Position numbers and translations under genes: made by a program. A DNA stretch of 64,000 bases from Octopus sinensis (lineage: Eukaryota), in NCBI RefSeq assembly GCF_006345805.1, contig NC_043011.1, forward strand, positions 15,264,464-15,328,463. The letters are read 5' to 3'. This document shows positions 351-56,245 of the stretch, one piece after another. Numbering within the stretch: position 1 is the first letter of the stretch; each line of letters starts with the position of its first letter. The notes under the pieces are model-generated. The model did not search any database, was not told where the DNA came from, and was given only the letters and a program-made list of their open reading frames with translations.

Positions 351-1018
351 TGTAAAAAATTACTTGTTAAAGGGTAGTTTTTTTTGTGTTTAATTGTACA
401 CTATTTTAAAATATGAATATGTTGTCTATTGACTATTTATACATGCTAGGCCACTGGTGGTGATATTTATAACGAATATTCATTACCCTATATATGTATC
501 TTATGAATATGTACTTAGCATTCTCGAAGATTCGGCTCGGCATTTTATTTATTGCCGACTGTACCTGCACCTGCGCGCGAAATTTTGAAATGTTATAACA
601 TATAATGACGGGACACGTGTTATCTTGTCTCTGAATTATAAGTTAGTTATTGAGGCCGGTCACTGATGAGAATTCGCCTGGTGGATAATATTGTTTTGCT
701 AAATTACCTATTAAAGAATAACAAATAATATTTTTTGCTAAAAAAATTCGAAATCATGGTATAACCGCTAATAAAAATAAGAAGGTAAAAGTTTTTATTC
801 TTCATTTACTCGAAAATTGCTATTAAATCGTGGTTTGGGCCGTGTTGGCTGCTATTTCTAGTATGTAAAAATTACCTGTTAAATGGTAGTTTTCTTTTGT
901 GTTTAACTGTACACTATTTTAAAATATGAATATGTTGTCTATTGACTATTTATGCATGTTAGACCACTGGTGGTGATATTTATAACGAATATTCGCTACC
1001 CTATATATGTATCTTATG
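351..1018 (+). mobile_element. HHR-containing ~513-bp unit in 1.3 tandem copies (retrozyme/Penelope pLTR-like)
   Basis: 351-505 is repeated at 864-1018; HHR at 657-767; 3' end abuts (TA)n at 1019. Confidence 0.75.
657..767 (+). ncRNA. type I hammerhead ribozyme with extended stem II loop
   Basis: CGGTCA-CTGATGA-GAATT...(70 nt)...AATTC-GAA-ATCATGGT-A-TAACCG; stem I 5/6 pairs, stem II 5 bp, near-palindromic stem III, GUA triplet. Confidence 0.7.
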
Positions 1019-1045
1019 TATATATATATATACATATATATATAC

Positions 1046-1441
1046 TTTCGCGGTTGCATACAAGTTATGGATCCAACCAACATAGGGATGGTTCTAGGTT
1101 GACGCTTACATGAAAGAAGAACACGTGTGTAACTTTAAATTTCTTTACAAGTGTTTCAGCATCAATTTTATTTTAGTGATGAAATAGTTCGATCATTACG
1201 ATTACATCATGAAGAGTATCCACTATCATCAGGTGATTTTAAAAGTGGGTGTGAAGAGAAAATTCAAATCGACGCGCTTTGCCAAGCATTAGCAAAGCGA
1301 GTCGATTTGAATATTCTTTTCACACCCACTTTTAATATCACCTGATGATAGTGGATACTCTTCATGATGTAATCGTAATGATCGAACTATTTCATCACTA
1401 AAACAAAACTGCTGCTGAAACAGCTTTTGTGGAATTTTAAA
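1046..1441. mobile_element. foldback element with degenerate HHR-like cores
   Basis: Inverted arms ~1152-1282 and 1292-1422 with a 9-nt loop; CTGATGA (1342-1348)...GAAACA in each arm, pointing outward; between (TA)n and (TTG)n/(TTC)n. Confidence 0.6.
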
Positions 1442-1449
1442 CTCTACTT

Positions 1450-1633
1450 TTGTTGTTGTTGTTGTTGTTGTTGTTGTTCTTCTTCTTCTTCTTCTTCTTC
1501 TTCTTCTTCTTCTTCTTTTTCTCCTTTTTCTTCTTCTTCTTCTTTTTTCTTCTTCTTCTACTACTACTTCTTCTTCTCCTCCTCCTCCTCCTCCTCCTCT
1601 TCCTTCTTCTTCTTCTTCTTCTTCTTCTTCTTC
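1450..1633. repeat. compound (TTG)n/(TTC)n/(CTC)n microsatellite
   Basis: Direct inspection. Confidence 0.95.
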
Positions 1634-53114: not shown

Positions 53115-53234
53115 ATGCTTACAGCACCTAGGTTTCCCAAGCGGTCACCCATCTAAGTACTAACTAGGCTCGATGATGCTTTACTTCAGTGATCGGACGA
53201 GAACCGGTGCTTTCAACGTGATATGGCCGTAAGA
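53115..53234 (-). pseudogene. full-length 5S rRNA-derived copy (dispersed)
   Basis: Reverse complement tcttacggccatatcacgttgaaagcaccggttctcgtccgatcactgaagt...agttagtacttagatgggtgaccgcttgggaaacctaggtgctgtaagcat; single copy, fused to a LINE tail. Confidence 0.9.
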
Positions 53235-55069
53235 TATATATATAGATCTGTAAAATAATATGTGACAATTATTCAATAGCCAATTATAGCCAATATTCTA
53301 TCTGTCTCTCTCTCCCCTCTTTTTCGCTTTCTCTCTCTCTCATTACTCACACGTGACCATCGGCCATCTTTCTTTCCCTCACGTGACCATCTTTCTTTCC
53401 TACACGGACGTTCTAATGTGTCGCGCTGAATCTCCCTGAGGACTACCTTGTGGATACGGATGTCTGTGGAATCCTCAACCACATAAACGCTAATTTCACA
53501 ATCATCATCATCATAATTTGAGGTCTCTTTCTTTCTTCTGTTATGTTACCGTGTTTCCCAATATATATATATATATATATTGGTGTTCAATTAAATAATA
53601 AATAATACATTAAAAAATATATATATATATAGGTACATAACGTCACCAACGTTTCAAACAACATATATATACATATATGTATATATATGTTGTTTGTATG
53701 TCTCCACTGTCATATTTTTGTTCCCAACTTAGACCTTCCATAAATCCTAAATTTTATTTAGAATTTATTGGAACATCTGTCTTTAAAGACTCATAATTTC
53801 GTTGAATGCTCGAAATTAGGAGTAGATAGACAGCCGACAACTGATGAAGAGTCTTTTCTCTGTGCTTACTTGCCCCGTTCTGCATATTATTTACTATTTA
53901 TACACACTCACACACACACATAGAGTATATAATTTGTATTTTTGGGAGTAGAAAAATATTTCTAAACTTTAAAAATTTTTATCTACGCAATGAAAAGATT
54001 CGCGTGAGTTTTGATTGTTTTATTGTAAATGAGACACCCATGGAAATGATACAGTGTTTGTGTTTCATTCTTTATCACTTGACCTAAAATAATTTGACTC
54101 TTTACATTTTCTTTCTTTAACAAATTAGGAACTAATTTGGTCATAGTGTCTTGTACTAATTTGTCAAGTTACGCTATGTCTGTAATGCTTTTGCTTCAAG
54201 TTCTTTGTTTTGCTTATAGAGGTTCCATCATCATTCTTATATATATTTTTGGAAGAAATGTGTATGACACTGTTATGCTGTCAACTATTATTTTTGTCCA
54301 TCTAATTGTATTCTATGTTGTGCAATATGCTATGTCATAATGGAATTTATCTTGTGATTTGATTGTTTCTATATGGTCGTATAGTTTGTGTATTCTTTCA
54401 TTTGTTTCAGTCACTTGACTACGGCCATGATGGAGCATCACCTTTAGTAGAAAAAATCGCCCCCAGGATTTATTCTTTGTTAACTTAGAACTTATTTATC
54501 GGTTGTCAAGCGATGGTGAGGGGACAACACAGACACACATACGTACACATACATATATAGGACAGGCTTCTTTCAGTTTCCATCTACCAAATCCACTCAC
54601 AAAGTTTTTGGTTGGTCCAAGAGTAAAGTTGAGGACACATGCCTAAGGTGCTATGGATTCAACTCTCCTCCCCTTTTCATCTAACCTCCTCCCGTCTCCT
54701 CTCTACCTCTTACACCTACTTCCTCCCACCCACCTCTCCTCTCTTGCTCCGACTCCTACTTCTTCTCTTCACTCCTACCCACATTCTCCCTTTCCCCGCT
54801 TCATCGTCACCCTTCCCTCGTAACCCCACCCACTCCTATACAATCAAACCGCGTATTCCCTATCCATTCCATTCCACCAACCCCGTCCCTTACACCCACT
54901 TCCACATACCTCACATCTACCCCACCCTCAGCCTAACACACACCCCACCCTTGCTTCCCCACTCTCGCCTCCCCCACCTCCCAACACCATCACACCACAC
55001 CACACATCACTACATCATACACTACCATACCACACAACACTACATCACATCACCACGCACACACTAGCA

Positions 55070-55440
55070 CTAACCACTTCCCAACCCCACATCCACACAC
55101 CTACACATACACACATGCACACGTCAAGGTCACCAGCCCTCTTCCACACGGACATACATACTCTCTTTTACACACGCACGCGCACCTTCGTGTTGGGATC
55201 ACCACTACTTTATTATCTCCCCTTTTTCCTAGCTCTTCTGTATGACCCTCTGTCCGGCATACGCCATCATAGATTGCTAGCCAGTACACATTCACTCCTT
55301 TTTCTTTCTGTGTTGCTTTCTCTGGAAGAGCGTAGGGTCGAAATGTTAAAGACTTTTTCAATTCCTGAGCGTTATACTAATACATCTGTTTGTTGTCTAC
55401 ATCACCTGTCTTCGTCTCTCGATTTGTTGTGAACTCTGCT
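55070..55440 (+). mobile_element. Penelope pLTR-like fragment with a degenerate HHR (~55317-55352)
   Basis: ..GGA-A-GAGC-gtag-GGTC-GAAATGTTA followed by cctgagcgttatactaataca, a motif shared with the 24243-24450 and ~41040-41105 elements; ends at (TA)n. Confidence 0.5.
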
Positions 55441-55803
55441 ATATATATATATATATATACACAAATATATATATATATATATATATATATATATATATAT
55501 ATATATATATATACATAGATGCAGATATATAAGTGCAGTGTGCATTTAAACACATAAGAGATGGCCATAATAAGCAATAACATTATAACATATAAGCACG
55601 AGGCACGTTCTGTATTGCCTCGTATTTATATTAATCTTGGCTTCCTGCTGATGATAGCTGAGCCTAGCAAATTATTTTATATGCTGAAGATAACTTGAAT
55701 CCATGGTACAGGAAATAGATGGTAAATGTTTTTATTTTTCATTCCCTTTCGAAATTACCCCTAATAGTGATTTGGATTTTAACTACTCCTTCTGGTGGGT
55801 TAG

Positions 55804-56245
55804 ATTAATCGAGGTCAGAAAAGTGACAGAGTGTACTGGCTAGCACTTCTTTTGCTAAAACAACTCAAAAGCCACAAAAAGCACTCTCTTTATGACTGAT
55901 AAAGTGAGGTAAGTGCCCAGCGTTTAAATCGGATCGTGATTTCGGATTTTAATATAGGCAATCTTAATACTCGTCAACGATTCTTAACACTCAGGGTTAA
56001 ACTCAACTATCCCAGTCAGTCTTATAAGAAGAGCGGTGGAAAACTTGTGCTGGTTTTCAAAACGGTAAAAATATACACAACCAATTAGATAGGGTGGCTT
56101 ATTAACAATTAGAACGTAAAGGCAAAATTAATAGAGGTCAGAAAAGCGACAAATGGTACTCACTAGCACCGCTTTTGCTAAAACAACTCAAAAGCTACAA
56201 AAGTACTGTCTTAATGACTGACAAAGGGGGGTAAATCCCCAGCGT
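55804..56245 (-). mobile_element. 323-bp unit in 1.35 tandem copies with a degenerate HHR (55927-55982)
   Basis: 55805-55923 repeated at 56128-56245; reverse complement AATCG-tTGACGA-g...cc-GAA-ATCACGAT-C-CGATT. Confidence 0.65.

Follow-up and report, generated by a model that had tools for sequence, protein, structure and literature searches.

Hammerhead-bearing loci in Octopus sinensis are probably the 3′ ends of Penelope-like element families

Why does a single stretch of octopus DNA hold several hammerhead ribozyme motifs of unlike sequence, many of them lying against runs of (TA)n? The stretch in question is 64,000 nucleotides of Octopus sinensis (RefSeq assembly GCF_006345805.1, contig NC_043011.1, positions 15,264,464 to 15,328,463), referred to here as the window. 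It contains seven such loci, which we label A (351-1018), B (1046-1441), C (19541-22235), D (24243-24450), E (39410-39666), F (51862-52321), and G (55804-56245). A sequence-only reading had placed them in a large, diverse population of non-autonomous retroelements mobilized by Penelope-like enzymes that prefer (TA)n. Our analysis supports a modified answer, to which we assign a probability of about 0.85: all seven loci represent 3′ ends, each with its hammerhead, of Penelope-like element (PLE) families. On this view, E and F are what remains of two coding elements truncated to their ends; D likely derives from the end of another; and A, C, and G (B is unclear) are tandems without an open reading frame (ORF) that were likely copied in trans. 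The seven families are new members of an already described kind of mobile DNA.

Seven dispersed repeat families

The assembly spans 2.72 Gb in about 30 chromosome-scale contigs, and the window is rich in microsatellites (130 tandem-repeat rows). All seven intervals were present as claimed, each belonging to a dispersed repeat family and carrying a type I hammerhead-like motif, and self-comparison reproduced the proposed architecture of A-G (1.3-3x tandem, foldback, or fragment). First-look searches gave 1716 candidates for A, 38 for B, 1559 for C, 1003 for D, 2974 for E, 1139 for F, and 653 for G, from which at most 40 candidates per family were scored and 29-30 loci fetched. Judged by identity, C and F are young (~99%), A, D, and E intermediate (83-97%), and B and G old (69-84%). 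That each family has a different sequence was confirmed: only one of the 21 A-G pairs, C-F, exceeded 200 shuffles, through an AT-rich match of 21 nt (P = 0.005, uncorrected) that loses significance once 36 tests are allowed for.

Hammerhead motifs in the window and in family alignments

Descriptors for the type I hammerhead were composed after the window sequences had been inspected. The strict CUGANGA core matched the window seven times (five in C, two in F), compared with a mean of 0.07 and a maximum of 1 in 60 local dinucleotide shuffles. The relaxed core gave 15 matches (mean 1.13 and maximum 5 in 60 such shuffles), 11 of them inside A, C, E, F, and G and four outside the named loci. Neither descriptor matched B or D, whose hammerheads were recognized by eye and from family alignments; D escapes them because it lacks loop III and has a mismatched pair in stem I, and B because both window copies are decayed. 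Rfam gave 377 matches, and the 150 of these that were listed included no hammerhead family; the Rfam models suit canonical motifs, and this result was not used as evidence.

The motif of A lies at 658-766 (+), with a 5-bp stem I that carries one mismatch in the window copy, a long stem II, and a palindromic stem III. The decayed hammerheads of B are at 1338-1432 (+) and 1143-1236 (-). C has five motifs in five units: 19829-19880, 20387-20438, and 20938-20989 on the minus strand, and 21444-21495 and 22001-22052 on the plus strand, the latter two with A-A at 10.1/11.1 and a GUU site. D has a minimal hammerhead at 24344-24378 (-) with U4C, an extra A after A9, and an AACGUU stem III without a loop. 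The U4C motifs of E are at 39443-39480 (-) and 39525-39562 (+), those of F, with U-U at 10.1/11.1, at 51948-51998 (-) and 52254-52304 (+), and that of G at 55927-55982 (-).

Pair and core counts were made in five family alignments. The ordered core of CUGANGA, GAAA, and UH is the majority state in A, C, F, and G, with the U4C variant in D (24/29 copies) and E (37/58). The core is weakest in B, in which the first box is intact in 5 of 18 copies and GAAA in 17 of 18. Three stems surround the core in the families counted, with C and F mismatched at 10.1/11.1; U-U is the state in F, and, in 31 of 33 contexts, C has A-A and a GUU site. Family majorities re-form pairs that the window copy has lost, as in the U-A pair of A stem I (27/30 copies), the G-C pair of G stem II (33/39), and the G-C pair of D stem I (27/29). 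Likewise, the core of G, decayed in the window copy, is a canonical CUGAUGA in 25 of 39 family copies.

Stem III is palindromic in A (14/30 family copies), B, C, D, and G, a form described for PLEs as the dimer-type hammerhead (PMC4209133; here and below, the literature is cited from partial text unless the main text is named). Minimum-energy cofolding yields a double-hammerhead fold for A, F, and C2, a sister family of C described below. Stem II inserts of 65-75 nt occur in A and B. The stem III of E and F is only 3-4 bp, and these hammerheads may act as monomers. U4C is reported to lower in vitro activity, and U10.1-U11.1 to be the best-tolerated mismatch at that position (PMC3088659). Collectively, the cores and stems indicate that the type I hammerheads of all seven families are real motifs, with self-cleavage predicted.

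Additional CUGANGA or CCGANGA boxes in a possible hammerhead context were seen at 3541 (+), 3332 (+), 52479 (-), 61283 (+), and ~40995 (+). The segment 52378-52630 was found again in other loci. Self-comparison also revealed a short foldback at 52735-52924 with AT-rich and TA flanks, in which a hammerhead core was not seen.

Coding parents of E, F, and D

F (51862-52321, both strands) is a foldback of pseudo-long terminal repeat (pseudo-LTR) ends assigned to a young 5.3-kb Hydra-type PLE; its arm at 51862-52080 (-) has a 69-nt tail and its arm at 52081-52321 (+) has none. The copies are 99% identical (best 40 of 1139 candidates). The parent, read on the reverse strand of locus L216, is ordered as a pseudo-LTR (1-276), the tail, an ORF (323-2455, one frameshift) with reverse transcriptase (RT) and C-terminal GIY-YIG-type motifs, a 2.9-kb untranslated region (UTR), and a second pseudo-LTR that runs to the short end. 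A second locus, L237, is collinear with element positions 837-5595 (90% over 5043 columns). By motif reading, unbroken RT plus endonuclease (EN) stretches of 483 and 496 aa lie in one frame in L237 and L239, and identity is 96-100% among the 40 copies scored for the ORF end. Many F loci reach varying lengths into the parent UTR; therefore, the window F is a short, 5′-truncated, inverted copy of a coding element.

The F parent reaches ~5.3 kb because of its microsatellite-filled 3′ UTR (L216 reverse strand 2456-5352), which is 77% tandem repeat and has 14.5 TA runs per kb, compared with 1.59 genome-wide. An inverted C-like fragment lies within it in 17 of 20 copies (L217-L236). We estimate a few thousand F copies from two insertions in 0.8 Mb. 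Unless further PLE families behave likewise, this UTR probably makes up little of the genome; two other PLE families also have simple-repeat-rich UTRs.

E (39410-39666, both strands) is a foldback of two 5′-truncated pseudo-LTR ends, with the short end at 39410 and the long end, bearing a 71-nt tail, at 39666, both in TA. At its parent locus, L388, the pseudo-LTR and tail continue into the start of an ORF on one arm, while the other arm runs through the ORF, a 1-kb UTR, and E into TA; this copy carries the canonical U4. The tails end 47-67 nt before the first ATG in both the E and F parents. Their proteins, 36-53% identical to each other, contain DKT, RW(K/R), CxCX5C, CxxC, and CxH motifs as read by eye. 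On these features, E and F are the pseudo-LTR ends of two coding Hydra-type PLEs, and not non-autonomous families.

D (24245-24450, -) is a monomer with a fixed 3′ end at TA. It aligns with a related end, D2, better than in any of 200 shuffles, and D2 ends a Neptune/Poseidon-like fragment via a C-rich UTR at locus L385. The window holds a D2 element at 54979-55440 (+), composed of a C-rich 3′ UTR and the decayed D-related pseudo-LTR of another PLE; it ends in a TA run (55440-55517) and matches the UTR and end of the L385 fragment at 72.6% over 470 columns. D is thus likely the end of a third PLE. Further PLE ends of the D/D2 type lie at 41041-41109 (-) and 2208-2281. The proposal that these elements are non-autonomous therefore fails for E and F and is weakened for D, related to a PLE end, but fits A, C, and G.

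Two other coding families were encountered. An abundant, young Neptune-like PLE (L240-L269) has open frames of up to 784-789 aa, a (TTC)/(CAT)-rich UTR, TA at its end, and a hammerhead variant of the U3-A8 type; its endonuclease gave 21,135 first-look candidates. At L390:2465-7615, another Hydra-type family forms a 5-kb foldback with 99.4% identity.

ORF-less tandem families

A, C, and G are tandems of ORF-less units with one type I hammerhead each. A (351-1018, +) is a retrozyme-like tandem of 1.3 copies of a 512-bp unit with its 3′ end in a TA run (1002-1044); its best non-self copies are 83-92% identical (best 40 of 1716 candidates). C consists of 3.2 copies of a 557-bp unit at 19544-21324 (-), whose long 3′ end lies at a TA run (19471-19543), and an inverted arm of 1.6 units at 21325-22235 (+), whose short 3′ end is also at a TA run. 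Full-unit copies of C are 94-100% identical, and its arrays occur on many contigs and extend up to ~9 kb. G (55804-56244, -) is an old tandem of 1.3 copies of a ~320-bp unit (copies 72-80%, best 40 of 653 candidates) that touches TA at its 5′ end and not its 3′ end. A and G mostly have 1-2 units per locus, whereas C forms long arrays. B (1046-1441, both strands) is an old foldback with copies at 69-84% (38 candidates); its longer arm stops at a TA run at 1045 and its shorter arm lies near (TTG)n/(TTC)n.

The sister family C2 is 84% identical to C and also young (94-99%), with units of ~562 bp in arrays of up to 16 units. The single C2 copy examined (L380:4795-5537) has G-U at 10.1/11.1 and a GUA site and is more canonical than C. 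The ribozyme with which the young family C spread is likely weakened. Contigs of four sequencing runs, which we only guess to be RNA, contain pieces of C, with ends, strand, and circles not readable there.

Homology of A, C, and G to the pseudo-LTR of a coding PLE was not seen in ~2 Mb of loci, a non-exhaustive search. RT/EN fragments lie beside copies of A (L048, L054, L060), B (L080), C (L101), D (L122, L129, L292), and G (L182, L203) but were rejected as parents because they are split off by TA runs, are in the opposite orientation, or have a different pseudo-LTR of their own. Two abundant Neptune/Poseidon-like families were also rejected as parents of A-G, as they end in their own U3-A8-type motifs.

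3′ junctions mostly lie in (TA)n in five families

Junctions were read in the ribozyme sense and scored for (TA)4+, with terminal-window ends counted separately from all free ends. A, C, E, and F each have two fixed 3′ end positions 69-92 nt apart, as does B in its window copy. Among terminal-window ends, (TA)4+ follows the long 3′ end in A (12/14), C (21/21), D (27/29), E (22/29), and F (28/29), and the short 3′ end in A (8/14), C (15/15), E (24/29), and F (9/9). Over all free ends, the counts are 27/46 for A, 50/51 for C, 24/26 for D, 26/48 for F, and 13/52 for G. Background rates are 3.3% for positions in evenly placed sequence and 6.6-7.5% in window and locus flanks; for three abundant control repeats, the query end meets TA in 9/76, 28/100, and 0/71 cases. 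The claim that nearly all loci abut (TA)n or other simple repeats thus stands for the 3′ ends of A, C, D, E, and F (57-100% versus a background of 3-8%), far above the background, but not for G and B: TA targeting is strong in five families and weak in these two. The control repeats, which we take to be parts of short interspersed nuclear elements (SINEs), have ~150 insertions per Mb each (window 27128-27359, with ~10 other copies; 22948-23104; 23131-23328).

In foldbacks, one arm carries the long end and its partner the short end. The centers of E foldbacks differ between copies; therefore, the arms were joined independently, at each insertion. Starts vary in E and D, and the best-scoring copies are biased to the shape of the query; the idea of a fixed 5′ start was rejected on these grounds. 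Partial tandems, an inverted 5′-truncated copy, a tail at one end, and a preference for TA are published PLE traits (PMC8557442). In vitro, two internal RT starts after AT-rich nicking account for the PLE end pattern in Poseidon (PMC11167929).

Abundance in the genome

To sample density, a stricter descriptor was run on 799,700 bases, made up of 80 10-kb stretches spaced along contigs C1-C28 at preset round coordinates. This sample contained 18 motifs, versus 0, 2, 2, 2, 3, and 1 in six shuffles, so that the excess over shuffles is clear in the sample as in the window. (TA)5 lies within 258 nt downstream of 9 of the 18 motifs and upstream of 3, the background being 14.9%. In the window, the same descriptor finds nine motifs, in three of the seven named loci. 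The suggested density of about one element per 10 kb is accordingly true of the window but not of the genome sample, which has about one intact motif per 50 kb. Extrapolation from 0.8 Mb gives ~55,000 intact hammerhead motifs genome-wide, with a wide error; the true total is higher, because decayed copies go uncounted. Together, families A-G account for 10 insertions in the sample, and PLE protein fragments occur in 10 of the 80 stretches. A large, diverse ribozyme-bearing population is therefore borne out, at ~20 intact motifs per Mb, although not all of its families are non-autonomous.

Other features of the window

A single 5S rRNA copy at 53116-53234 (-) (Rfam, 102.8 bits) adjoins TA and A-rich sequence and is likely dispersed or SINE-like. 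ORF fragments at 17435-18214 (-), 58255-58596 (+), and 4150-4569 (-) resemble, respectively, the RT end of a long interspersed nuclear element (LINE), a mariner transposase, and a zinc-knuckle gag.

DISCUSSION

The 3′ junctions, the hammerheads, and the parents of E and F are consistent with the following cycle. A transcript spanning the pseudo-LTR would be bound by the RT/GIY-YIG protein of the element, which would presumably nick a (TA)n tract. cDNA would start at one of two fixed internal sites, 69-92 nt apart, downstream of the hammerhead. Early termination would leave 5′-truncated monomers; the inverted arms that we observe would come from priming a second time, on the opposite strand. 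A, C, and G would be copied in trans by PLE proteins. The hammerheads, mostly with a palindromic stem III, would cut multimeric transcripts as dimers, giving unit-length or circular RNA. The hammerhead is probably not required for the insertion step itself, as reported for PAc (PMC11167929). E and D copies retain the motif entirely, so that their templates were not cut there, which agrees with that report, a point limited by the selection of best-scoring copies.

Mobilization by Penelope-like enzymes, as the sequence-only reading had it, gains a link to PLEs through the parents of E and F. For A, B, C, and G, no coding partner was found in ~2 Mb of loci, a search that was not exhaustive; therefore, their trans-mobilization is only inferred, from junction anatomy. 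Several other observations weigh against our reading. Scoring the best 40 candidates per family favors copies shaped like the window copy. The 3′ ends of G lie in (TA)4+ in only 5/22 (long) and 6/22 (short) cases, and free ends of B are at TA in 2 of 37, although the B query likely stops short of the true end. Of 41 stem pairs examined for covariation, a single one showed it, in stem I of G (UA 12, CG 12, UG 10; P = 0.003, uncorrected and with relatedness not controlled). Minimum-energy cofolding produced no double-hammerhead fold for C, D, E, and G. The tails of 69-92 nt exceed the 30-40 bp in print (PMC11167929). Pfam had no match for two Hydra-type ORF pieces of the F parent, and the assignment of the E and F parents to the Hydra type comes from motif reading.

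Another account would make A, C, and G dispersed satellites, or SINEs driven by a LINE, with a hammerhead but no use of PLE machinery, their arrays having grown by unequal exchange at the DNA level. The missing coding partner would fit this account, as would arrays that reach 16 units in C2 and ~9 kb in C, and a satellite-like expansion of retrozymes has been proposed (bioRxiv 10.64898/2026.07.22.740005). We nevertheless find it unlikely, because C arrays at 94-100% identity on many contigs have the same two end positions in TA (36/36 junctions), and a C inverted arm with the short end is common, as in F and E, whose parents are PLEs. It is comparably improbable that the TA tracts were produced during insertion, by slippage or untemplated addition, and were not pre-existing targets. 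Several 3′ ends do close in TA-like microhomology; however, 12 of 29 D monomers have TA next to their 5′ end as well, as expected of a split tract, different families are stacked in the same TA tracts, and a PLE endonuclease cuts AT-rich DNA in vitro (PMC11167929).

We give very little credence to the idea that chance alone produced the motifs, in repeats that are AT-rich and decayed, and that TA adjacency merely reflects a microsatellite-rich genome. The descriptors were tuned after inspection, (TA)5 occurs in 15% of 258-nt stretches drawn at random, TA lies at the end of one control repeat in 28% of cases, and covariation within families is scarce. Set against this are the excess of motifs over shuffles in the window and in the 0.8-Mb sample, the restoration of broken pairs in family majorities, TA at 76-100% of long ends in five families, and the coding PLE parents of E and F.

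As stated, the finding is a gain in annotation, amounting to tens of thousands of hammerhead-bearing PLE ends; ribozymes go unmentioned in the main text of a recent repeat annotation of this genome type (PMC13282606). What PLE hammerheads do is described as an open question (PMC8557442, PMC11167929), and the families presented here are test material, including two matched natural pairs: the cores of C and C2, and the U4C copies of E and their canonical parent copy. The microsatellite-filled UTR of an active-looking Hydra-type element is a possible route to self-made PLE targets. A more speculative extension, which we consider possible but doubtful, is that octopus PLEs run a feed-forward loop in which they insert into TA, carry kilobases of TA/TG microsatellite from the ORF to the ribozyme, seed new targets, and so build a microsatellite-rich genome, with C having swept with a crippled hammerhead while C2 remained near-canonical. 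If true, C versus C2 would be a natural test of the importance of the ribozyme for mobility.

Comparison with known systems

Judged by titles and the starts of abstracts, only one of the papers listed on octopus hammerhead ribozymes was relevant (PMC8557442). Listings on microsatellite seeding by Penelope contained squamate reports only, and the literature searched on these two subjects gave no account of a Hydra element whose UTR holds a kilobase-scale microsatellite.

Hammerheads of PLE pseudo-LTRs, present en masse as truncated copies, were described by Cervera & de la Pena (2014, PMC4209133). Shared with that report are the type I fold, a short palindromic stem III, an extra base after A9 (here in D and B), and many sequence-diverse families per genome, mostly as single truncated copies with some close opposite-strand pairs. 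In contrast, U4C dominates here in D and E, 10.1/11.1 is U-U in F and A-A in C, A and B have stem II inserts of 65-75 nt, and stem III is 3-4 bp in E and F.

Craig et al. (2021, PMC8557442) described the Hydra clade, its TA targeting, and Hydra-1_Obim of Octopus bimaculoides with its hammerhead. The E and F parents resemble this clade in their C-terminal GIY-YIG, their DKT, RW(K/R), CxCX5C, CxxC, and CxH motifs, a hammerhead near the 3′ end, and insertion in (TA)n. They appear to be families distinct from Hydra-1_Obim, as judged by eye, and the F parent, at ~5.3 kb, exceeds the size generally given for the clade (under 3 kb, a described tendency that is not diagnostic).

Non-LTR retrozymes are proposed non-autonomous derivatives of PLEs (Cervera & de la Pena 2020, PMC7229834; Li, Clavereau & Pollet 2026, bioRxiv 10.64898/2026.07.22.740005). 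Like them, A, C, and G are ORF-less tandems of low GC content with one type I hammerhead per unit, but the units of A and C (512-557 bp) are longer than the typical 150-450 bp (PMC7229834; bioRxiv 10.64898/2026.07.22.740005). Relative to those reports, the present families add two-end PLE tails, inverted arms, and TA junctions tallied per copy. The closest biochemical parallel is Poseidon PAc (Frangieh et al. 2024, PMC11167929). There, the ORF begins inside the hammerhead, whereas in the E and F parents the tail ends before the first ATG; in both systems, two internal RT starts set the tail and nicking is in AT-rich DNA (predicted here), and in PAc the hammerhead is not needed for insertion.

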